A stretch of DNA of 64,000 nucleotides from Candidatus Krumholzibacteriia bacterium (GTDB taxonomy: Bacteria; Krumholzibacteriota; Krumholzibacteriia; G020349025): assembly GCA_035649275.1 (NCBI GenBank), contig DASRJW010000024.1:3759-67758 (forward strand). Direction: 5' to 3'. Position 1 is the first letter of the stretch, and each line of letters begins with the position of its first letter. The position numbers and the translations under genes were made by a program. This document shows positions 6,613 to 60,052 of this stretch, in pieces. The notes under the pieces were generated by a model that saw nothing but the letters and a program-made list of their open reading frames with translations, searched no databases and had not been told where the DNA came from.

Positions 6613-7978
6613 ACCCCTGTCGTCGCGGTCCATGGCGCCGACGGTCATCGCTCCGGGCCACACCGCTGCCACGGTGACCGACAAGATCGCCGCCGTGGTC
6701 CTGCAGCGGACGCCGCTCTGGTTCTATCCGGCGTTCGGAGCGGCCTTCATGCTGCTCATGACCTTGCTCTACGCCATCACCTACCTCTTCGCCAAGGGCG
6801 TCGGCATCTGGGGCGTCAACAACCCGGTGGGCTGGGGCTTCGCCATCATCAACTTCGTCTGGTGGATCGGGATCGGTCACGCCGGCACGCTGATCTCGGC
6901 GATCCTCCTCCTCATGCGCCAGAAGTGGCGCACTTCGATCAATCGCTTCGCCGAGGCCATGACCCTCTTCGCCGTGGCTTGCGCCGGCTTGTTCCCCATC
7001 CTGCACCTGGGGCGCCCTTGGCTCGCCTACTGGCTCTTCCCCTACCCGAACACCATGTGGGTGTGGCCGCAGTTCCGCAGCCCGCTGATCTGGGACGTCT
7101 TCGCCATCTCCACCTACATGCTGGTGTCGCTCATGTTCTGGTACGTCGGGCTGATTCCGGATGTGGCGACGCTGCGCGATCGCACGAAAAACAAGATCGG
7201 CCAGATCGTCTACGGCATGATGGCCATGGGCTGGCGCGGCTCGGCGAAGCACTGGCACCACCACGACACCGCTTGCATCCTGCTGGCGGCGCTGGCCACG
7301 CCGCTGGTGGTGTCGGTGCACTCGGTGGTGAGCTTCGACTTCGCCGCCGGCATCATTCCCGGCTGGCACACCACGCTCTTCCCGCCCTACTTCGTGGCCG
7401 GCGCCATCTTCGCCGGCTTCGCCATGGTGATCACGCTCTGCATTCCGCTGCGCGCCGCTTTCGGCCTGCACGACTTCATCACCGAGTGGCACGTGCGCAA
7501 CATGGCCAAGGTCATGCTGGCCACGGGCCTCATCGTCAACTACGGCTACGGCATCGAGCTCTTCATCGCCTGGTATAGCGGCAGCCCCTACGAGACCTTC
7601 ATGCTCAGCAACAGGATCGGCGGGCCGTACCGCTTCATCTGGTACGCCCTCATCCTCTGCAACGTGGTGGCGACGCAGTTCCTCTGGTCGGCGAAGGTGC
7701 GTTCCTCCGCCGTCGCCCTCTGGGTGGTAGCCATGTTCATCAACGTGGGGATGTGGCTCGAACGTTTCGTCATCGTCGTCACCAGCTTGCACCGGGACTT
7801 CATGCCCTCCGCCTGGGGCATGTATTACCCCACCAAGTTCGACTGGATGACCTTCCTGGGCAGCATCGGTCTGTTCCTCTCCCTCATGTTCCTCTTCGTC
7901 CGGCTCCTGCCGATGATCTCGATCTTCGAGATCCGCGGCATCCTGCCCAAGACACGGGCAGGGGAAAGGAGCGCCTGA
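6602..7978 (+). CDS. actC: Alternative Complex III subunit ActC (NrfD/PsrC-like polytopic membrane quinol-binding subunit)
   Basis: Highly hydrophobic multi-TM protein (WWIGIGHAGTLISAILLLM, LFPYPNTMWVWPQF) in the expected operon position. Confidence 0.8.
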   Translation: MATEPLSSRSMAPTVIAPGHTAATVTDKIAAVVLQRTPLWFYPAFGAAFMLLMTLLYAITYLFAKGVGIWGVNNPVGWGFAIINFVWWIGIGHAGTLISAILLLMRQKWRTSINRFAEAMTLFAVACAGLFPILHLGRPWLAYWLFPYPNTMWVWPQFRSPLIWDVFAISTYMLVSLMFWYVGLIPDVATLRDRTKNKIGQIVYGMMAMGWRGSAKHWHHHDTACILLAALATPLVVSVHSVVSFDFAAGIIPGWHTTLFPPYFVAGAIFAGFAMVITLCIPLRAAFGLHDFITEWHVRNMAKVMLATGLIVNYGYGIELFIAWYSGSPYETFMLSNRIGGPYRFIWYALILCNVVATQFLWSAKVRSSAVALWVVAMFINVGMWLERFVIVVTSLHRDFMPSAWGMYYPTKFDWMTFLGSIGLFLSLMFLFVRLLPMISIFEIRGILPKTRAGERSA

Positions 7979-8523
7979 TGCAAGTGCACCGCCAGCCCCT
8001 GCATGGCGTCATGGCCGAGTTCGATCACTCGGACAGGTTGATCGCCGCGGTGAAGGCGGTGCGGTCCCAGGGCTACACACAGCTGGACGCCTACACCCCC
8101 TATCCCATCGAGGCTCTGCACCATGCCCTCGGCCACCACCATTCGCCGTTGCCGCGCATGGTGCTGGCCGGCGGCATCACCGGCGCTCTCGGTGGCTTCC
8201 TACTGCAGACCTGGACCAGCACCGTGGCCCTGCCGCTCAACGTCGGCGGCAAGCCCTTCTTCAGCTGGCCGGCCTTCATCCCCGTCACCTTCGAGTGCAC
8301 GATTCTCTTGGCGTCGTTAACCGCCGTCTTGGGGATGCTGGCGCTCTCCGGTTTGCCCCGGCCGCACCACCCGGTGTTCAACGTCGAGCGCTTCGCCATG
8401 GCGAGCCGGGACCGCTATTTCCTCTGCATCGAAGCTGGCGATCCTCTCTTCGACGTCGACAAGACGTGCCAGTTCCTCTGGACCCTGGAGCCGACGCATG
8501 TGGCCGAAGTCGCCGAAACCTGA
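7978..8523 (+). CDS. actD: Alternative Complex III subunit ActD
   Basis: The ATG at 7978 overlaps the actC stop (ATGA). About 180-aa protein with two TM helices and operon context. The track ORF 7753..8523 carries a spurious N-terminal extension. Confidence 0.7.
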   Translation: MQVHRQPLHGVMAEFDHSDRLIAAVKAVRSQGYTQLDAYTPYPIEALHHALGHHHSPLPRMVLAGGITGALGGFLLQTWTSTVALPLNVGGKPFFSWPAFIPVTFECTILLASLTAVLGMLALSGLPRPHHPVFNVERFAMASRDRYFLCIEAGDPLFDVDKTCQFLWTLEPTHVAEVAET

Positions 8524-9142
8524 AAGCCGCGCCGCCGCCCTGGTCGTGGCGCTGCTGGCGCTTCCGGGCTGCATCCGGCTCGACATGTACAACCAGCCGC
8601 GCTACGAGCCGCTGGAGGCGAGCCGGTTCTATGCCGACGGGCGCTCCGCCCGGCAGCTTCCTGCCGGCACGGTGGCCCGGGGCACGCTGCTCGAGGATCG
8701 GGCCTACGCCACCGGCACGGTGAACGACTCGACCTTCGCCACCGAGCTGCCGTTCGCGCTGACGCCGGAGCTCCTGCAGCGCGGCCGCGAGCGCTACGGC
8801 ATCTTCTGCTCCGTCTGTCACGACGGCACCGGGTCCGGGCGCGGCATGGTGGTGCGGCGCGGCTACAAGCAGCCGCCGTCCTTCCACATCGAGCGGCTGC
8901 AGCAACAGCCGGCGGGCTATTTCTTCGACGTCATCAGCCGCGGTTTCTCCACCATGCCCAGCTACGCCGCTTCCATCCCCATCGCCGATCGCTGGGCCAT
9001 CGTGGCTTACCTGCGAGCGCTGCAGCTGTCGCAGCAGGTCGCGGTGCGCAACTTGCCGGAGCCGTGGCGGGGCGAGATCGAAGCCGCGGCGAATCAGGCA
9101 GCCGCAGGGAAGAAGGAGCCAGCAGGCCATGAGCATAGGTGA
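8498..9142 (+). CDS. actE: Alternative Complex III subunit ActE, monoheme cytochrome c lipoprotein
   Basis: Lipobox LLALPGC, a single CSVCH heme motif, and operon position. Confidence 0.8.
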   Translation: MWPKSPKPESRAAALVVALLALPGCIRLDMYNQPRYEPLEASRFYADGRSARQLPAGTVARGTLLEDRAYATGTVNDSTFATELPFALTPELLQRGRERYGIFCSVCHDGTGSGRGMVVRRGYKQPPSFHIERLQQQPAGYFFDVISRGFSTMPSYAASIPIADRWAIVAYLRALQLSQQVAVRNLPEPWRGEIEAAANQAAAGKKEPAGHEHR

Positions 9143-10334
9143 CGCGCCTTCGCTGGCGGTGCTGCGCGCCGCGGCCGTGCCGGCCGGCTGGACGCAAGAC
9201 CTGCGCAAGCGGGCCCTGTGGTTCGCCATCCCGGCCGCGGTAGCCTCGGTGGCCGGCGCCATCGTCGCACCCCAGGCCTTCTACCGCGCCTACCTCACCG
9301 GCTTCGTCTTCTGGCTCGGCGTGCCCCTGGGCTGCCTGGGGCTCCTGCTCCTCACCCACATGACCGGCGGCAGCTGGGCTCTGATCATGCGGCGGCTCCT
9401 GGAGGCGGCGACGCGCACCCTGCCCCTTCTGGTGCTCCTCTTCGTCCCCGTGCTGCTCGGCCTGCGAACGCTGTACTCCTGGACCGACGCCGAGAAGGTG
9501 GCGGCGAGCGCCATCCTGCAGCACAAAGCGCCGTACCTGAACTTGCCGTTCTTTCTGCTCCGCACCGCCCTCTACTTCCTGATCTGGGGGCTCTTCGCCT
9601 TCGTGCTCAACCGCTGGTCGCTGGAGCAGGATCGGACCGGGGCCTCGACGCTGCCACGGCGACTGCAGGGTGCCGGCGGTGTCGGCTTGCTCGTCTTCAT
9701 GCTGGCCGGGAGCTTTGCCAGCTTCGACTGGCTCATGTCCCTCGACCCGCTGTGGTTCTCCAGCATCTACGGCATGCACTTCGTCGTCGGCCAAGCGGCC
9801 TCCGGCCTCTGCTTCGCCATCCTGGTGGCTCGCTCGCTCGGGCGCTCGCAGCCCTTGGACCGGGTCTACGCCCCGCGGCACCTGGACGACTACGGCAAGC
9901 TCTTGCTCGCCTTCATCCTCCTCTGGGGCTACATGACCTACTCGCAGTACCTGATCATCTGGTCCGGCAACCTCCCGGAGGAAATCACCTTCTATGTGCG
10001 CCGGCACGCCGGGGGCTACATGGTGCTGAGCTTCGTCATCGCCGCCCTGCACTTCGCCCTCCCTTTCTTCCTGCTCTTGTCCAAGAGCATCCGCAGCAAT
10101 CCCCAGCGCCTGGTGTGGGCGGCGGTTCCCGTCTTCGTCGGCCACTGGCTCGATCTGGTCTGGCAGGTGGCGCCATCGCTGGATCCGGAGGGACCGGCGC
10201 TGCACTGGCTCGATCCGGTGGTGACGCTCGCCATCGGCAGCGTCTGGCTCGTCGCCTTCGCCTGGCAGCTGCCGCGACGCGCACTTCTGCCGCAGAAGGA
10301 CGCACACCTGGAGGAGGCCTTGGCGGATGAGTGA
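9129..10334 (+). CDS. actF: Alternative Complex III subunit ActF (second NrfD-like membrane subunit)
   Basis: Polytopic membrane protein paralogous in character to ActC, in operon position. Confidence 0.75.
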   Translation: MSIGDAPSLAVLRAAAVPAGWTQDLRKRALWFAIPAAVASVAGAIVAPQAFYRAYLTGFVFWLGVPLGCLGLLLLTHMTGGSWALIMRRLLEAATRTLPLLVLLFVPVLLGLRTLYSWTDAEKVAASAILQHKAPYLNLPFFLLRTALYFLIWGLFAFVLNRWSLEQDRTGASTLPRRLQGAGGVGLLVFMLAGSFASFDWLMSLDPLWFSSIYGMHFVVGQAASGLCFAILVARSLGRSQPLDRVYAPRHLDDYGKLLLAFILLWGYMTYSQYLIIWSGNLPEEITFYVRRHAGGYMVLSFVIAALHFALPFFLLLSKSIRSNPQRLVWAAVPVFVGHWLDLVWQVAPSLDPEGPALHWLDPVVTLAIGSVWLVAFAWQLPRRALLPQKDAHLEEALADE

Positions 10335-53859: not shown

Positions 53860-56800
53860 TTGCGTTTCCCTCGACACCTCGGGTTCTTGCTCCTCGGCCT
53901 CGTCGCGGTACCGGCGCAGGCGCAGCTGCAGTACTTCGGCAAGAACAAGGTCGAGTACGAGGAGCAGGACTGGCGTGTCCTGCAGACCCGGCACTTCGAC
54001 GTGCACTTCTACGCCGGTGAAGCGGCCATGGTGCACGACGCGGCGCGCTTGGCGGAACGGGCCTACACCGAGCTCGCCGCCGTCCTCGGTCACGAGTTGC
54101 CGCGGCGCATTCCCCTCGTCCTCTACGCCTCGCACTCCGACTTCCAGCAGACTCACATCACGCCGTCCATGATCGACGTCGGCACCGGGGGCATCACCGA
54201 TCTGGCGCGGCGGCGCGTCTTCCTGCCCTTCAACGGTTCCTGGGGCGACTTCCAGCACGTGCTCACCCACGAGCTCGTGCATGCCTTCGAGATCGACATT
54301 CTTTTCGATTCCACCCAGGGCGATCCGCTGAATCCCTTCGCCTTCGCGCCGCCGCTCTGGGTGATGGAGGGCCTGGCCGAGTACCTGTCGCGGCCCCAGC
54401 AGGACAGCTACACCGCCATGTGGCTGCGCGATGCGGCCCTCTCGGGACGGCTCCTGTCGCTGCCGCAGCTGGAGCAAGTCCAGGACATCCGTATTTACCG
54501 CTTCGGCCAGAGCGTCTTCTCCTACTTCGCCGAGCGTTACGGCAGCCGCCGCATCGGCGACCTGCTGCGTGCGCTCGCCACCAGTCGCAGCCTGGAGCGG
54601 GCGTTCGAGGATGTCGCCGGCGTCTCGTTGCAGCAGTTCTCCGAGGCGTGGACCACGGCCGTGCGCCGGCGGCACCTGCCCGAGCTCGGGCAGCACCAGC
54701 TGAACCGCGAGTACGCCACCCCGGTGGTCACCCGAGAGAGCGAGAACGCCGGCATGCTCCTCGTGCCGAGCATCTCGCCGGACGGCCGCTACCTGGCCTA
54801 CGTGAGCGACGCCGGGCTCACCCGCGACCTCTATGTCCGCGATATGGAGGAAGGGCGCTCGCGCCGGGTCGTGCACGGCGAGCAGAGCGGAGACTTCGAA
54901 TCGCTGCGTTTCTTCAACGCCAGCGCCGCCTGGGCGCCCGACGGCAAGACCCTCGCCTTCGTCTCGCAGTCGCGCGGCGAGGACGCCCTCAATCTCCTCG
55001 ACGTGCAGCGCCGACGTGTCGTCGCCAAATATCGCTTTGGTCTCGACGAGCTGCAGACTCCGACCTTCTCGCCGGACGGCGGCGAGCTGGTTTTCGTCGG
55101 TCTCGAGGGTGGGCAGAGCGATCTCTATCGCGTCCGCAGGGATGGCACCGATCTGCGCCGGCTCACCGCCGACCGCGCCGGCGAGCGGGATCCGCAGTGG
55201 TCACCGGACGGCCGGAAACTGGTCTACGTCACCGATGACGGTGAGGACGCGGACTTCGAGGCACTGCGCTTCGGCACTTGGAAGATCGCTCTTCTGGAGC
55301 TGGAGAGCGGCAGACGCGAATTGCTACGCCCCTTCAGAACAGGTGCCGCTGCCAGCCCTGTCTGGTCCGGAGACGGCGGCTCGATCGCCTTCATCGCCGA
55401 CCCGGACGGCATCCCGAACATCTATGTGCTGCACCTCGCGACGTCGAACGTCTTCCGCCTCACCGACACGGTGACCGGTGTGGGTGGCGTCTTGCCGGAG
55501 AGTCCGGCCCTGTCCTGGGCCCGGGGGAGCGATCGCCTGGTGTTCTCGGCCTTCGGTAACAGCGGCTGGGACATCTTCCGTATCGACCGCCCGGCCAGCG
55601 TCATGCGTCCCCTGGAAGGCGCCATCGCCAACCTCGTCACGAAACACGGTGCGACGGAGGCGGCAGGCCTTGTCGCTCCCGACTCCATGAGCGCGGTCAG
55701 CACAGTGGCGGACTCCGTCGCTCGCGACTCCCTCGCGATGAAGACCGTGTCGGTCGACTCCATCGCGCCGTCCTCGGTTGCTCGAGACACCATGGCGCCG
55801 TCCTCGCTTGCGTGGGACGGTATCGCGCCAGCCTCGGCTGCTCGCGACTCCAGCGCGGCCGCTGGCGCAGCATCGGCGGCCCTTCACCCCGGCGCCGGCA
55901 TGACCTCGCCGGCGGCGGCCACGACGCCGCCAGGCGTGCTGCTGCCGGCGCCCGAAGCGATGGATTTCGTCGAGCGCCCGTACCATGCGCACCTCGCCCC
56001 CGATGTCTCGCAGGTAGCAGGGGTCGTGGGAAGCCAGGGCGGTTTCGGCGGTGCCTCGCTCATCCACTTCAGTGACCTCCTCGGCGATCATTTGCTCAGT
56101 GTGGGCTTCGGCATCTATGGCTCGCTCAAGGATTCCGATCTTTCCCTCGAGTATCTGAACCGTTCGGGACGAACGAACTACCAGTTCGGCGTTTTCCAGC
56201 ACCAGCGGCGTTACGGGTTCCTGGCCTCCGCGGTAGCCGGAGTCGAGAAGCAGACGTATCTCGGCGTGCGCGCCGCCGCGATCCGTCCCTTCGACAAGTT
56301 CTCTCGTGTCGAAATGTCGATGCAGCTCGCCGCTGTTCGCGGCCGCTTCTTCTTGGGTGAGACCTTGGGGGATGGGAGCGTGCAGGAGCTACGCAGCTTC
56401 GCGGGCCCCGGGCTCGCCTACGTGGTGGACACGGCGCTCTTCGGTTCCACCGGCCCGATCATGGGGCGTCGCCTGCGCCTCGGCCTCGAGTCCGGTTTCG
56501 GCGAGCTCGACTTCCGCACCCTCGAACTCGACTGGCGGCAGTACTGGAGCTTCGGGGCCAGTTTCACGCTGGCCGCCCGTGGCTACCTCGCCGGGAGCTG
56601 GGGGGCGACGCCGCAGAGTTTCTTCCTGGGTGGAGCGAACACGCTGCGCGGTTACGCCTACGGCGCGCTCGCGGGAACTCACGCTGGTCTCGCAGGACTG
56701 GAGTTCCGCTTCCCACTCCTGCGCTACCTCGCCCTCGGCTGGCCCTTGCCGCTCGAGCTCGGCAACGTGCGCGGCGTTCTCTTCGCCGAATCCGGCTCGG

Positions 56801-57000
56801 CTTGGGACAGCGTGTGGCTTCGCACCAGCCGCGCGGCCGCGGGGATGGACGTGGATCTGGGGCCGCAGGTGGCCTACGGCTTCGGCACGCGCATCGATTT
56901 CGGCGCCTACATTCTTCGCCTCGATTGGGCGCAACTCTACGATCCGCGCACGGGCCACACGCGGCGCGGCTCGAGTGTCGCTGTCGGCGCGGACTTCTAG
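53860..57000 (+). CDS. Multidomain outer-membrane protein: N-terminal HEXXH zinc-peptidase-like domain, PD40/TolB-like beta-propeller, and C-terminal Omp85/surface-antigen-like beta-barrel
   Basis: Signal peptide LLLGLVAVPAQA. HEXXH motif as HELVH within VLTHELVHAFE. PD40 repeats (SPDGRYLAYVSD, WAPDGKTLAFVSQ, FSPDGGELVFV, WSPDGRKLVYVTDDG, WSGDGGSIAFIADPDG). C-terminal alternating hydrophobic beta-strands ending in an aromatic residue (AVGADF). Confidence 0.6.
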   Translation: MRFPRHLGFLLLGLVAVPAQAQLQYFGKNKVEYEEQDWRVLQTRHFDVHFYAGEAAMVHDAARLAERAYTELAAVLGHELPRRIPLVLYASHSDFQQTHITPSMIDVGTGGITDLARRRVFLPFNGSWGDFQHVLTHELVHAFEIDILFDSTQGDPLNPFAFAPPLWVMEGLAEYLSRPQQDSYTAMWLRDAALSGRLLSLPQLEQVQDIRIYRFGQSVFSYFAERYGSRRIGDLLRALATSRSLERAFEDVAGVSLQQFSEAWTTAVRRRHLPELGQHQLNREYATPVVTRESENAGMLLVPSISPDGRYLAYVSDAGLTRDLYVRDMEEGRSRRVVHGEQSGDFESLRFFNASAAWAPDGKTLAFVSQSRGEDALNLLDVQRRRVVAKYRFGLDELQTPTFSPDGGELVFVGLEGGQSDLYRVRRDGTDLRRLTADRAGERDPQWSPDGRKLVYVTDDGEDADFEALRFGTWKIALLELESGRRELLRPFRTGAAASPVWSGDGGSIAFIADPDGIPNIYVLHLATSNVFRLTDTVTGVGGVLPESPALSWARGSDRLVFSAFGNSGWDIFRIDRPASVMRPLEGAIANLVTKHGATEAAGLVAPDSMSAVSTVADSVARDSLAMKTVSVDSIAPSSVARDTMAPSSLAWDGIAPASAARDSSAAAGAASAALHPGAGMTSPAAATTPPGVLLPAPEAMDFVERPYHAHLAPDVSQVAGVVGSQGGFGGASLIHFSDLLGDHLLSVGFGIYGSLKDSDLSLEYLNRSGRTNYQFGVFQHQRRYGFLASAVAGVEKQTYLGVRAAAIRPFDKFSRVEMSMQLAAVRGRFFLGETLGDGSVQELRSFAGPGLAYVVDTALFGSTGPIMGRRLRLGLESGFGELDFRTLELDWRQYWSFGASFTLAARGYLAGSWGATPQSFFLGGANTLRGYAYGALAGTHAGLAGLEFRFPLLRYLALGWPLPLELGNVRGVLFAESGSAWDSVWLRTSRAAAGMDVDLGPQVAYGFGTRIDFGAYILRLDWAQLYDPRTGHTRRGSSVAVGADF

Positions 57001-57037
57001 CTCTCCCCGAGATCCACGCCAGGCATCCGCACTTCGC

Positions 57038-57679
57038 CTACTCCCGGTACAGTCGCTTCACCACGTCCCAGTGCGTCGACTGGACGGCGACCGTCGTCGT
57101 ACCCGTCGTGAAACGCCAGACCGGACCCGAGACCTTGCCACAATCCTGGTCGGGGCTCGCTACGACTCGCCAGTAATAGGTGGTTTCCGGCTCCAGGAGT
57201 CCGGGAGTGAAAGGCTGGCAATCCTCCAGCGCGAGGCACACCAGCGGCGGGTCCGGGGTGGTCCCGAAGTACACATTGACGTACGCCGTGCCGATACCGC
57301 AGCAGTAAGATGGCCCCGTCGATCCCCAGGTCAACTGCGGTTCACGGGTTACGTTGACCGCCGCATCCAGCGGAAGTGGATCCGAAGGCACCGGGAGCAG
57401 CGGACCCGGTGAGGTCGAGCCACCCTGGACCGAGACCGCGGTGAACAACGGCGAGTTGCAGCGGTGGACGACAGGACCATCGATCGCCGGATTGCTCGGC
57501 GTGTGGTGGCCGGTGACCTGCAAGGCATAGACCGGCGACTGCCCCGGGGGAGCGAGAATCGTCACCGTGTAAAGCAGGACGGCGCCGTAGGCGGTGCCCG
57601 GGCAATCGCTGAAGCTCATGGCGCACCAATCTCCGAACGGGTCACCGATGGCGATCGCCGCAGGGTTAGGCGTCACCAC
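57038..57679 (-). CDS. Hypothetical protein with an FN3-like segment; possible N-terminal truncation or frameshift
   Basis: GTG start; ETTYYWRVVA...GPVWRFTT is FN3-like. A roughly 45-codon ORF with an AAGGAG SD lies just upstream in another frame. Confidence 0.4.
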   Translation of the reverse strand: MVTPNPAAIAIGDPFGDWCAMSFSDCPGTAYGAVLLYTVTILAPPGQSPVYALQVTGHHTPSNPAIDGPVVHRCNSPLFTAVSVQGGSTSPGPLLPVPSDPLPLDAAVNVTREPQLTWGSTGPSYCCGIGTAYVNVYFGTTPDPPLVCLALEDCQPFTPGLLEPETTYYWRVVASPDQDCGKVSGPVWRFTTGTTTVAVQSTHWDVVKRLYRE

Positions 57680-58242
57680 CGGCCGTGGCTCCGGGTGGCA
57701 AGCCGGTCACGGAGAATTCCGCCCCCGCGATCGACGGTAGGGTACCCAGTTCGGCAACGATGTAGTTCGTACCCGGGTTGCTGGTATCCAGATAGCAAGT
57801 CCCAGTAGAGATCTCCTTTACTACGCTAATGCGTCGAGGGCTGGCTGGTGGCGCGTACAGGAGCTACACCCGCCTCAGGGGCGGCCCCATCAGGGTTGCC
57901 CCGACAGGCGGCGGAACCCCGCTCGAATTGCACCCCCGAACCCGCCTCGAATTCGAAACCCCCGATGACTTCGGCAAGCGCTCGTTCACTTGCTCACGAG
58001 CAGCTGGGCATGGCTCCTCGTTCCCAAGCCAACATCCACTCGTCTCATTTCATTGACCGGCACGGATCTTTCTAGTCGAAACCGCGACAGCACTCGAGGA
58101 GCGCGGTGGCGGCGTGTCGGGGAGCCCCTGGCGCATAGGTGCACTGATTGAGTGCAGGCTCCCGAGACAGTGCCCGAAACGAGTGCAGGAATTGTCGGCT
58201 ACTCGGGCCGGCAACCTCTCACTGTTTTCCATCTGCGGAGGC

Positions 58243-58358
58243 GCGTGCCAGAGTTCTCGGCGTTTTCCGCTGGCTGGTGTCGAGGAGGGAAGGAGACCGC
58301 TCACCATTCTCCATGCCCGAGGGTGAGGGCGTGCCTGAGTTCTCGGCGTTTTCCGCTG
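58243..58358. repeat. Two 30-bp near-identical direct repeats (GCGTGCC[A/T]GAGTTCTCGGCGTTTTCCGCTG) 86 bp apart in a low-GC 770-bp intergenic region
   Basis: Copies at 58243-58272 and 58329-58358 (1 mismatch), each preceded by a similar G-rich stretch. Confidence 0.6.
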
Positions 58359-58453
58359 CCGGGGGACTCCGAGATAAGCCCATCGTGGCGAGGGGAATTG
58401 AACTTGCGGCCGTGACGTGAGGAGCGCTGCTTCGAGAGCAGCCGTCCCGACGC

Positions 58454-60052
58454 TCAGCGCTGCTCCTGCAGCCATTTCCTGGGTGGCACGCTGCTGCGCG
58501 CGCTCTCCGGCACCAGCGCCTGCCACCAGGAGCGCCCCTGGGCCTCGGTCCACGGCTCCACGCCGCAACGGCGGAGCGAGTCGAGGAGGTCGTCGGCGCT
58601 CTGAGGTCGGCGCGCCGGTTCCTTCTCCAGGCAGGAGAGGATCAAGCTGTCGAGGGCCGAGGGGATGGGGAGCTCGGTGCGCTGCGAGGGCGGAGTGGGT
58701 GGTGTGCGCGCGTGCTGGGCGATCACGTCGACTGCGCTCGCGCCGTCGAACACGAGCTGACCGGTGAGGAGCCAGTAGGCGAGGCAGCCGACTGCGTAGA
58801 GATCGGTGCGGGCGTCCACGGGCTGCATCCCGAGCACTTGCTCGGGGGCCATGAAGCCCGGCGTACCGCCGATGGCATCGGTAGCGCTCGTGATGCCGTC
58901 GGCGGGGCGAGCCGGCTTGACCAGACCGAAATCGAGCACCTTCACCACGTCGAAGGTCCGGCCGTAATGGCAGGCGAAGACGTTGGCAGGCTTGATGTCG
59001 CGATGGATGAGCTCGTTCTCGTGCGCTTCGGCCAGGGAGTCGCACACCTGGGTGAGGAAGTGCACGGCCCGGGCCGCGGGCACCGGACCGAATCGCCGCA
59101 CGAAGGTATCCAGGTCGAACCCATCCAAGAGTTCCATGACATAGTAGAAGGTGCCGTCGTCGGCGATGCCGTAGTCGTAGACGGCGATGGTGTGCGCCGA
59201 GCGCAGGCGTGCCGTAGCCTGCGCCTCCCGCTCGAAGCGCCGCAGCACCTGCTGGCGCTCTGCGAGCGGCACGCCGAGGAGCTCGGGCCGGACGAGCTTG
59301 ATGGCCGCGGGACGCGCGAGCAGGCGGTGTTCCGCGCGGTACACCTCCCCCATACCGCCCTTGCGCAGGAGCTCGCCGAGCTTGTAGCTGCCCAGCTCGC
59401 GAGCCGCCGTGACCTCTCGACTGAGCCGCGCCACGACCTTGGCGGGAAGCATGGCCAGGAAGGCGCAAATGAAGTTGGGCAAGTACGTCCACAGGATCAC
59501 CTCCCCCGGTGGGAGGGGTACGCCTCGGGCGCCGGTGATTGCCAGGCCGACGAGGTCCATGGCGGCTGCCAAAAGAGATGCGACCACGGTGCGGAGCACG
59601 GTGTTCGGGACGAGCAGCGGATGCACGAGAAGAAGGGCGCAGATCCAGGAGAGCCCTGCGGTGTTCGGTGTCCATTGGTTCACCAGACCGATGGCGAAGG
59701 CGAGCACCACCTCGTAAACGAGAGCGAGATCGAGGAGGCGAGCCAGCGACAGCGACGCCCGCCGGGTCGCGAAAATCACCGCCACCGAGACGAGGATGCA
59801 ACCCAGGGCGGCCGGATTGCCCGGCCAGGGCCAGGCATCGTCCAGGGGGCGTTCCGGCGACAGCCACGGCCCGACGATGTTGTTCATCACCAGCCCCAGA
59901 CTCCAGAGACCGATCCACACCCACGCCGCCGTGGCCAGGCGCCGGCCGGCGTCGCGTTGGATCTCGCTCGGCAGACTGGCGAGACCGGAACGGCGGTTCA
60001 GGGTGTTGACGTCGGCGAGTGAGCCTTGGCGGAGACGCAACTTCCCTCGCAT
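58454..60052 (-). CDS. Serine/threonine protein kinase with an N-terminal polytopic membrane domain
   Basis: C-terminal Hanks kinase motifs (GGMGEVYRA, AIKLV, HRDIKPANV, DFGLVK, GTPGFMAPE); about 6 TM helices precede it. The track ORF 58050..60071 is an overlapping artefact. Confidence 0.75.
   Translation of the reverse strand: MRGKLRLRQGSLADVNTLNRRSGLASLPSEIQRDAGRRLATAAWVWIGLWSLGLVMNNIVGPWLSPERPLDDAWPWPGNPAALGCILVSVAVIFATRRASLSLARLLDLALVYEVVLAFAIGLVNQWTPNTAGLSWICALLLVHPLLVPNTVLRTVVASLLAAAMDLVGLAITGARGVPLPPGEVILWTYLPNFICAFLAMLPAKVVARLSREVTAARELGSYKLGELLRKGGMGEVYRAEHRLLARPAAIKLVRPELLGVPLAERQQVLRRFEREAQATARLRSAHTIAVYDYGIADDGTFYYVMELLDGFDLDTFVRRFGPVPAARAVHFLTQVCDSLAEAHENELIHRDIKPANVFACHYGRTFDVVKVLDFGLVKPARPADGITSATDAIGGTPGFMAPEQVLGMQPVDARTDLYAVGCLAYWLLTGQLVFDGASAVDVIAQHARTPPTPPSQRTELPIPSALDSLILSCLEKEPARRPQSADDLLDSLRRCGVEPWTEAQGRSWWQALVPESARSSVPPRKWLQEQR

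Follow-up and report, generated by a model that had tools for sequence, protein, structure and literature searches.

Positions 57680-58453 of the window, as we call the whole 64-kb stretch of DNA that was analyzed, raise the question of what two nearly identical 30-bp direct repeats represent in a long and apparently noncoding region between two genes. The region (774 bp) is flanked on both sides by minus-strand ORFs. On one side it is bordered by a Ser/Thr protein kinase gene (58454..60052, minus strand) with Pkinase Pfam domains, and on the other by a 213-aa ORF (57038..57679, minus strand) that constitutes the 3' two-thirds of a disrupted gene for a secreted protein of about 294 aa and unknown function. 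Convergent with the 213-aa ORF is a plus-strand gene of 1046 aa, the orthologue of which in the related contig L032 matched Peptidase_MA_2, Tricorn/PD40 and Omp85. The neighbors of the region are a HAD hydrolase, the kinase and a peptidase/Omp85 protein. Among kinase homologues carrying a source name, some are labeled Gemmatimonadales, Gemmatimonadetes or Gemmatimonadota. The locus is present at near identity (99.2-99.9%) in independent ENA, Logan and JGI assemblies, designated here L001, L002, L034/L042 (L042 being the same contig as L034), L040 and L043-L045. Among the samples in which the strain occurs are SRR5582436, SRR5585388 and the JGI samples 3300006844 and 3300006847. The GC content of the region is 0.632 compared with 0.679 for the window, which places it at the 4th percentile of 774-bp windows, and the lowest-GC 774-bp stretch elsewhere in the window reaches 0.592. 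A preliminary description of this DNA had called the composition very different from that of the neighboring genes; at 63.2% versus 67.9% the region is only modestly GC-poor, below average and not exceptional.

The same description had treated the region as about 770 bp of intergenic DNA with no convincing ORF. The second part of this statement holds for positions 57865-58453, where no codon-position GC (GC3) periodicity was detected and no protein homologues were found. The seven ORFs of the region gave no match to Pfam, and the 90-aa ORF at 58148-58417 had no match at E<=1e-3 among 1.84 billion representative proteins. Conserved proteins encoded by the ORFs at 58148-58420, which had been named among the findings that would together refute the description, are accordingly not seen, and other copies of the 30-mer are present elsewhere, as described below. 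The first part of the statement stands for about 57865-58453 and fails for 57680-57864, where the downstream gene has left a relic of its coding sequence. This 5' segment (57680..57864, minus strand) was recognized from its translation and from homologue alignment; it lies in another frame than the 213-aa ORF, reads ...LLYAPPASPRRISVVKEISTGTCYLDTSNPGTNYIVAELGTLPSIAGAEFSVTGLPPGATAGG, and shows weak minus-strand GC3 periodicity over 57680-57800. Its upstream minus frame (...CYLDTSNPGTNYIVAELGTLPSIAGAEFSVTGLPPGATAGG) has no start codon, and when this frame is fused to the 213-aa ORF the product aligns over its full length with proteins of 294-301 aa. The conceptual fusion is 76-77% identical to the 294-aa homologue P0121 at 100% coverage and about 48% identical to P0123 and P0124; a Pfam search of the 213-aa ORF returned no family. 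The region is therefore a composite spacer and not wholly intergenic, and the relic coding sequence confines the true spacer to about 57865-58453.

Comparison of the assemblies showed how the downstream gene came to lack its start. A deletion junction at 57864..57865 marks the loss of 113 bp that carried a TACAAT box, a ribosome-binding site (RBS, GGAGG), the ATG and the signal peptide. The L034/L042 contig, which is 99.6% identical, has 113 extra bp exactly between window positions 57865 and 57864, with TACAATC..., GGAGG, an ATG and a signal peptide. The deletion is common to the window, L001, L040 and L043. A further lesion, an extra C near 57680 that causes a 1-nt frameshift, occurs in the window alone and is absent from L001, L034 and L040. 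The segment 57367-57438, which corresponds to residues found in more distant homologues, is present in the window and missing from the L001, L043 and L034/L042 alleles, and in the variants without it one extra base at the junction shifts the frame there. The allele of the window thus combines an absent start segment with the extra C and an intact 57367-57438. L001 and L043 lack both the start segment and 57367-57438; L040 lacks the start segment, with 57367-57438 lying outside its contig coverage; and L034/L042 retains the start segment and lacks 57367-57438. Since every variant seen is disrupted at one point at least, the gene of about 294 aa looks to be decaying in this population.

In order to reach an orthologous locus outside this strain, the closest homologues of the kinase (66% identity) were considered as anchors and rejected, as they are not syntenic and are probably paralogues. 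The syntenic locus was reached instead through P0121, the homologue of the disrupted downstream gene. On the contigs L032/L033 the gene order is the same, with HisKA, a 411-aa protein, HAD, kinase, the 294-aa gene and the convergent peptidase/Omp85 gene, and the coding regions of L032 are 80-86% identical to the window in nucleotides. The kinase orthologue can be aligned up to window position 58452. The spacer of L032 measures 391 bp, and no 30-bp core was found in L032/L033.

Similarity between the two spacers is confined to the kinase-distal half, where several blocks persist. The block CCCTGATGGGGCCGCCCCTGAGGCGGGTGTA (57865..57895, minus strand) is kept in L032, where it continues ...GTGTACAATC... 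to an RBS and ATG, and it is a probable promoter remnant of the disrupted gene. A tandem duplication of 24 bp (57914..57953, plus strand) accounts for the smaller CTCGAATT repeats that had been pointed out previously; they were recovered as GAACCCCGCTCGAATT (57914-57929) and GAACCCGCCTCGAATT (57938-57953) at a spacing of 24, and two such matches were seen in 0 of 100 shuffles. At the aligned place L032 has one related copy (TCGAGGCGG...). The longest near-identical spacer stretch common to both is the block GCTAGAAAGATCCGTGCCGGTCAATGA (58050..58077, minus strand; 25/26 by blastn), and further shared segments were noted around GTGCAC at about 58140 and, just before the deletion junction, as CCCTGATG.GGCCG...GCGGGTGTA. 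As judged from this alignment, the likeliest origin of the shared blocks is the region upstream of the 294-aa gene, of which they would be remnants. Beside the kinase, the window contains roughly 195 extra nt compared with L032, about the size of the repeat stretch. The L032 spacer is too diverged for placing the boundaries of an insert; since it is without the repeats, the repeat-bearing 200 bp or so beside the kinase stop is, on sequence comparison, lineage-specific.

The two near-identical 30-mers previously described at a distance of 86 bp were found at 58243-58272 and 58329-58358. They share the sequence GCGTGCC(A/T)GAGTTCTCGGCGTTTTCCGCTG, are identical at 29 of 30 positions, and have starts 86 bp apart. 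No 30-mer match with up to 3 mismatches arose in any of 100 dinucleotide shuffles of the window, and a third copy of the 30-mer was sought across the 64-kb window and, apart from the second locus described below, the other compared loci without success. Each 30-mer is preceded by the G-rich leader noted earlier (...gcggaggc and ...gagggtgaggg). For convenience we refer to the 30-mers as cores of two 86-bp units with arbitrary boundaries: unit 1 (58213..58298, plus strand) comprises a leader, core 1 (58243-58272) and a spacer, and unit 2 (58299..58384, plus strand) comprises a leader, core 2 (58329-58358) and a trailer. Identity falls fast beyond the cores, to 80% over 50 nt and about 56% in the leaders, so that the units are only about 56% alike outside their 30-bp cores, and Tandem Repeats Finder called no array. 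A weaker motif of 14 nt, TCTC....TTTTCC, is found in four copies at intervals of 38-44 nt, an arrangement indicative of a diverged half-repeat in each unit. Separately, a pair of 20-nt direct repeats lies at 58139..58189 (plus strand) with a spacing of 31 bp, and both copies contain an inverted repeat, TGCACT...AGTGCA.

The number of units differs between assemblies of the strain. Two units are present in the window, L001, L002/L045, L043 and L044. In L040, where the locus is 99.8% identical, one 86-bp unit is missing, and what remains runs from the unit 1 leader through one core into the unit 2 trailer; this single unit is a recombinant between the two cores, although the allele is seen on one short contig (2.6 kb) and may reflect a collapse during assembly. 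Such loss or gain of a unit would be explained by recombination or replication slippage between the cores. Contigs also end at or beside the cores (L002 and L045 at 58244, L034 at 58323), and L043 carries a strain SNP inside core 1. Loss or gain of a unit at this site is the only activity observed for the direct repeats.

Other copies of the 30-mer, proposed earlier as a point to check, were searched for in several collections. A 20-mer from the core matched eight contigs in JGI metagenomes. Five of the eight were dismissed as chance coding matches reading G-EFSAFSA, and the 20-mer is exact at only two loci in this collection. Against 185,579 species-representative genomes, an 18-mer from the core gave 26 single matches in unrelated phyla, and none of these loci resembles the window beyond the core itself; the two longest extensions, at an apparent hisS start in a Mycobacterium and in an RNase R-like gene, were rejected as chance coding matches. 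Plasmid, phage and viral-contig searches gave no match. The second metagenomic locus, on contig L038, is a different one and carries a second pair of cores, 81 nt apart. L038 and L034 derive from one sample, which also contains this strain. In tetranucleotide composition L038 correlates with the window at 0.981, compared with 0.98-0.99 among chunks of the window and at most 0.94 for unrelated high-GC loci. On the basis of composition and sample, L038 probably derives from the same genome. Its genes are chromosomal in character and include an ankyrin-repeat protein, PEPCK, DUF885 and Wzy_C.

Both L038 cores lie in frame within an ORF of 853 aa that carries the Pfam domains DUF222 and HNH, and there they encode the peptides GACQSSRRFPL and PCQTSRRFPL, 27 codons apart. 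Core 1 of the window matches L038 copy A at 30 of 30 positions, or 34 of 34 when two flanking nucleotides on each side are included, and core 2 matches copy B at 26 of 30. Outside the cores the similarity ends: leader, spacer and trailer show 0.47-0.53 identity between the window and L038, which is the value of shuffled sequences (0.49-0.50, SD 0.03-0.04). The spacers between the cores measure 56 nt in the window and 51 nt in L038. Within each locus, leader, spacer and trailer are weakly alike (0.55-0.59), as in a decayed tandem repeat, and L038 has a possible degenerate third unit. Short islands (GAAGGAGAC, ATGCCC and CTTGCGG) considered as window-L038 homology over about 200 bp were dropped as no better than shuffles, and a noncoding reading of the L038 repeat segment based on GC3 was likewise dropped (0.69 versus 0.76, p = 0.15).

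Several features bear on whether the conserved object is DNA or peptide. The L038 cores differ from each other by two nonsynonymous changes and one synonymous change; T-ending codons make up 4 of 10 in the core in a genome with high GC3; a 164-aa linker segment of the L038 protein had no homologue among 5.8 billion proteins; and the corresponding window peptides (GACQSSRRFPL in core 1 and ACLSSRRFPL in core 2) lie in two different frames. Together these argue for conservation at the DNA level and not at the protein level. A search of the window in all frames for similarity to the L038 protein beyond the cores found none, and no DUF222 or HNH sequence was present.

The region was also examined for features of RNA and of transcription. 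Rfam cmscan of 56500-59500 on both strands gave no match at E<=1, and ARAGORN found no tRNA or tmRNA over the window; tRNA or tmRNA fragments serving as att sites were likewise not found. Scanning 57400-58700 revealed no sigma-70-like promoter and no intrinsic terminator. A sigma-54 -24-like TGGCACG read on the minus strand of core 1 was rejected, as the -12 GC lies one base away from its expected place and both core 2 and L038 are without TGGCACG. The repeat stretch folds with z = +0.82 and +0.51 on the two strands, indicating no excess stability relative to shuffles; among single-unit folds, seven of the eight have z above -1 (the eighth, -2.3), and the predicted pairings and hairpins differ among the four core copies, which have no common fold. 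A CsrA-type GGA-motif sponge, considered from the motif spacing, had no structural support. One stem-loop stood out at 58409..58458 (minus strand), overlapping and following the kinase stop (TGA, 58456-58454), with a predicted energy of -25.3 kcal/mol (z = -2.0), a stability equalled by 8 of 200 shuffles. It is also found in the centroid structure of one of the whole-stretch folds and is plausibly a terminator-like hairpin without a U-tract. Read on the minus strand from the kinase, the spacer would then consist of this terminator-like hairpin, a repeat stretch of about 200 bp, the old upstream region and the 5' end of the relic gene.

We consider the 30-mers to be most likely, with a probability of roughly 0.55, a low-copy, lineage-specific interspersed direct repeat resembling a minisatellite or VNTR, and most likely neutral or selfish DNA; the term interspersed repeat family is drawn here from two loci. 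We do not think that the repeat is an sRNA gene, a small-protein gene or a regulator of the flanking genes. Of three earlier guesses for the region, a remnant of a mobile insertion comes nearest, as the repeat stretch is lineage-specific, has a second locus and varies in unit number. No transposase was seen, no inverted repeats bracket the repeat stretch in the window or L038, and no target-site duplication is recognizable, the boundaries relative to L032 being undefinable; mobility of the repeat is therefore putative.

Several other explanations were weighed against this reading. The cores might be sequence-specific protein-binding sites, such as paired operators, recombinase or resolvase sites, or sites of a nuclease of the DUF222-HNH kind, about eight turns apart and bridged by one complex. 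The contrast between core identity (30/30 and 26/30 between loci) and flanks and spacers at the level of shuffled controls agrees with such sites, as do the alike spacing of the pairs (86 and 81 bp), an imperfect dyad CCAGAG-TT-CTCGG read in the core, the position of one pair within an HNH endonuclease gene, and the single unit of L040, which is the product expected from deletion between direct sites. However, deletion between 30-bp direct repeats requires no dedicated enzyme, operators are usually shorter and less uniform than a 30-bp site at 100% identity, a strain SNP falls within core 1 in L043, and no regulator or recombinase gene adjoins. The orthologous L032 spacer is without the core, so the flanking genes do not need it, and one pair sits in coding sequence. 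On the earlier suggestion of a repeated operator the evidence is divided: a second, unlinked locus has the cores perfectly conserved within unalignable surroundings, but that pair is intragenic and the L032 spacer is without the motif. We regard protein-binding sites as an unlikely explanation, though one to be kept in mind. More doubtful is a dead coding fragment, in which the linker of a DUF222-HNH paralogue (motif A-C-Q-S-S-R-R-F-P-L) was copied to the spacer and then frameshifted. Both L038 cores being in frame in the DUF222 and HNH ORF would fit this origin, and so would the window cores encoding GACQSSRRFPL and ACLSSRRFPL, albeit in different frames. Yet the window has no similarity to the L038 protein beyond the cores in any frame, and the L038 linker is without a homologue among the 5.8 billion proteins. 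Moreover, core 1 and copy A are undiverged in nucleotides next to sequence that cannot be aligned, and the pattern of changes between the L038 cores, with the 4 of 10 T-ending codons, points to conservation of DNA.

A small regulatory or cis-acting RNA, either a 3'UTR element of the kinase with GGA motifs on the minus strand or an antisense RNA on the plus strand, appears improbable. Four 14-mers containing GGA(A/G)AA do occur on the minus strand at 38-44-nt intervals, a long plus-strand hairpin is possible in unit 2, and the stretch lies directly 3' of a gene on the same strand. Against these stand the lack of an Rfam match at E<=1 and of a promoter or terminator consensus in the scanned intervals, the positive z of the whole-stretch fold, the seven of eight unit folds above -1 and the differing hairpins of the four cores. 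The stretch is also missing from L032, and the element at the second locus would lie inside a coding region, in antisense or sense. On the same grounds, namely no Rfam match, no fold stability, no promoter or terminator and absence of the repeats from L032, the small-RNA locus suggested in the preliminary description was set aside. An artefact of assembly is highly improbable: several contigs do terminate at or beside the cores, but two cores with an identical spacer recur in independent ENA, Logan and JGI assemblies (the window, L001, L002, L043, L044 and L045). A minimal CRISPR array of two 30-nt repeats and one spacer is close to refuted. Its repeats would be 30 nt long and near-identical and its spacers (56 and 51 nt) unrelated between loci, as expected of CRISPR; however, there are only two repeats per locus and no AT-rich leader, the L038 "array" is in frame in a DUF222-HNH gene, and neither locus has a cas gene or domain among its annotated neighbors. 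In addition, leader, spacer and trailer are weakly alike within a locus (0.55-0.59). CRISPR spacers are usually shorter than 51-56 nt.

The interspersed, VNTR-like repeat remains our preferred reading. One observation sits uneasily with its neutral form: neutral decay would not be expected to leave a core of 30-34 nt unchanged at two unlinked loci between random flanks. An identical core within random flanks implies either very recent copying of the core alone or selection on the core, and the similar spacing of the pairs at both loci (86 and 81 bp) suggests a constraint. A more daring proposal makes the core a DNA site with a sequence-specific function, invariably found as two direct copies spaced by about eight helical turns, and the mark of a previously undescribed low-copy element able to sit in frame in genes. 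We hold this to be rather unlikely; one example could be a DUF222-HNH-associated system that transfers nothing but the core to new positions and for which the core serves as the target of recognition or recombination.

Among known systems, VNTRs of the type of mycobacterial interspersed repetitive units (MIRUs) appear to be the closest in behavior. MIRUs are composed of tens-of-bp units arranged head to tail at multiple loci, which are mostly intergenic and sometimes intragenic, and their unit number varies between strains (PMC3635867); a coding example of a VNTR is the 57-bp repeat in leuA (PMC2704214). The units at the window and L038 similarly measure 81-86 bp, occupy two loci of which one is intragenic, and, at the window locus, vary in number between strains. 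They differ in that only the 30-bp core is conserved, the remainder of the unit showing about 56% identity within a locus and none beyond chance between loci, and in that no array was called by Tandem Repeats Finder and the two loci have two clear copies each. In addition, the host is no mycobacterium, nor does the repeat resemble MIRU in sequence. The Rickettsia palindromic element (RPE), a repeat of about 150 bp, is present in many copies both in noncoding DNA and in frame within unrelated genes without breaking them (PMC10969869). The core resembles it in being found in a spacer and in frame inside the L038 DUF222-HNH ORF; it differs in having no terminal inverted repeats and no identifiable target duplication, and in forming direct pairs of a 30-bp core at two loci. 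Whereas MITEs and RPEs have many copies per genome, only two loci were found here among the searched collections.

Paired operators, iterons and recombinase sites are similar in consisting of direct conserved sequences of about 30 bp at near-whole-turn spacing, and deletion between copies was seen here. However, the core could not be linked to a cognate protein, a replicon or a regulated gene; it is absent from the L032 spacer and has one of its pairs within a gene. The L038 gene, with its DUF222 and HNH domains, also recalls the REP13E12-type (DUF222-HNH) genes of actinobacteria, a repeated and possibly selfish gene family in mycobacteria. The likeness is limited to the second locus, as the window is without DUF222 or HNH sequence and only the 30-bp cores are common to both.

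These results bear on how the locus should be annotated and used. What appeared as an intergenic region of 770 bp is better split into the 5' end of a pseudogene, a remnant of conserved upstream sequence and a repeat insert that varies between strains, and the 213-aa ORF downstream of it deserves a flag as a disrupted gene. The repeat accounts for contig breaks in several assemblies and, with its one or two units, is usable as a strain marker for an uncultured lineage. As it stands, the repeat is a minor addition to the broad class of bacterial interspersed repeats. If, however, a dedicated copying or binding mechanism lies behind the identical cores, they would represent a small new class of repeat in a poorly studied phylum.

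The spacers of the window and of L032, the syntenic relative that carries no 30-bp cores, have in common a block, GCTAGAAAGATCCGTGCCGGTCAnTGA (window 58050-58077; L032 9788-9813), which at 25/26 identity is the longest near-identical stretch between them, against a gene identity of only 80-86%. Its GAAAGATCCG portion forms a tandem duplication in L032, and the block is a possible regulatory site. Two 20-nt direct repeats, GTGCACTGATTGAGTGCAGG and GTGCCCGAAACGAGTGCAGG, follow at window 58139-58189 with a spacing of 31 bp, and their GTGCAC portion is kept in L032. Because each repeat contains the inverted repeat TGCACT...AGTGCA, the pair looks like a candidate operator.

The two 30-bp cores of L038, a second locus probably from the same genome, lie in frame within an 853-aa ORF (7251-9812, minus strand) with DUF222 and HNH domains, and a possible degenerate third unit is located 84 nt beyond them. 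This ORF is roughly double the expected length of a DUF222-HNH protein. A search among 5.8 billion proteins identified no homologue of its repeat-linker segment. Matches to an 18-20-mer taken from the core were also found in L019 (5319-5358), L004 (6159-6198), L035, L036 and L037. These were attributed to chance recurrence; they fall in unrelated genomes and all lie within coding sequence, reading EFSAFSA in most cases (L019, L035, L036 and L037) and VLGVFR in L004. The L019 match looks like the start of hisS from Mycobacterium. In high-GC genomes, exact matches of such short length fall preferentially in one reading frame.

Near-identical copies of the locus end their contigs at window positions 58244 (L002/L045), 58323 (L034/L042), 58142 (L044) and 57439 (L040). 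These breaks, in independent assemblies, either coincide with or adjoin the cores, or else mark the edge of an indel, consistent with assembly-graph branching induced by repeats or by heterogeneity.

Further along the left flank, a gene for a 1041-1046-aa protein (window 53860-57000, plus strand; L032 10922-14047) showed Peptidase_MA_2, Tricorn/PD40 beta-propeller and C-terminal Omp85 matches together, an architecture that seemed unusual. Just past the right end of the window, a gene encoding N6_Mtase and Eco57I domains (L001 4563-6182; L032 2523-4097), read as a predicted type IIG restriction-modification enzyme, has the same placement in this strain and in L032; it is flanked by an lptC-lptB-rpoN-hpf-hprK cluster and a histidine kinase gene.

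The downstream neighbour of the region at 57680-58453 is a disrupted gene for a secreted protein of ~294 aa that matched no Pfam family (window 57038-57864, minus strand; related coordinates L034 459-571 and L001 12613-12615). It is broken in all strain variants seen, whether by a 113-bp deletion that removed its start, by insertion of a single nucleotide, or by loss of 57367-57438 with one extra base at that junction, and its decay looks to be under way within the population.
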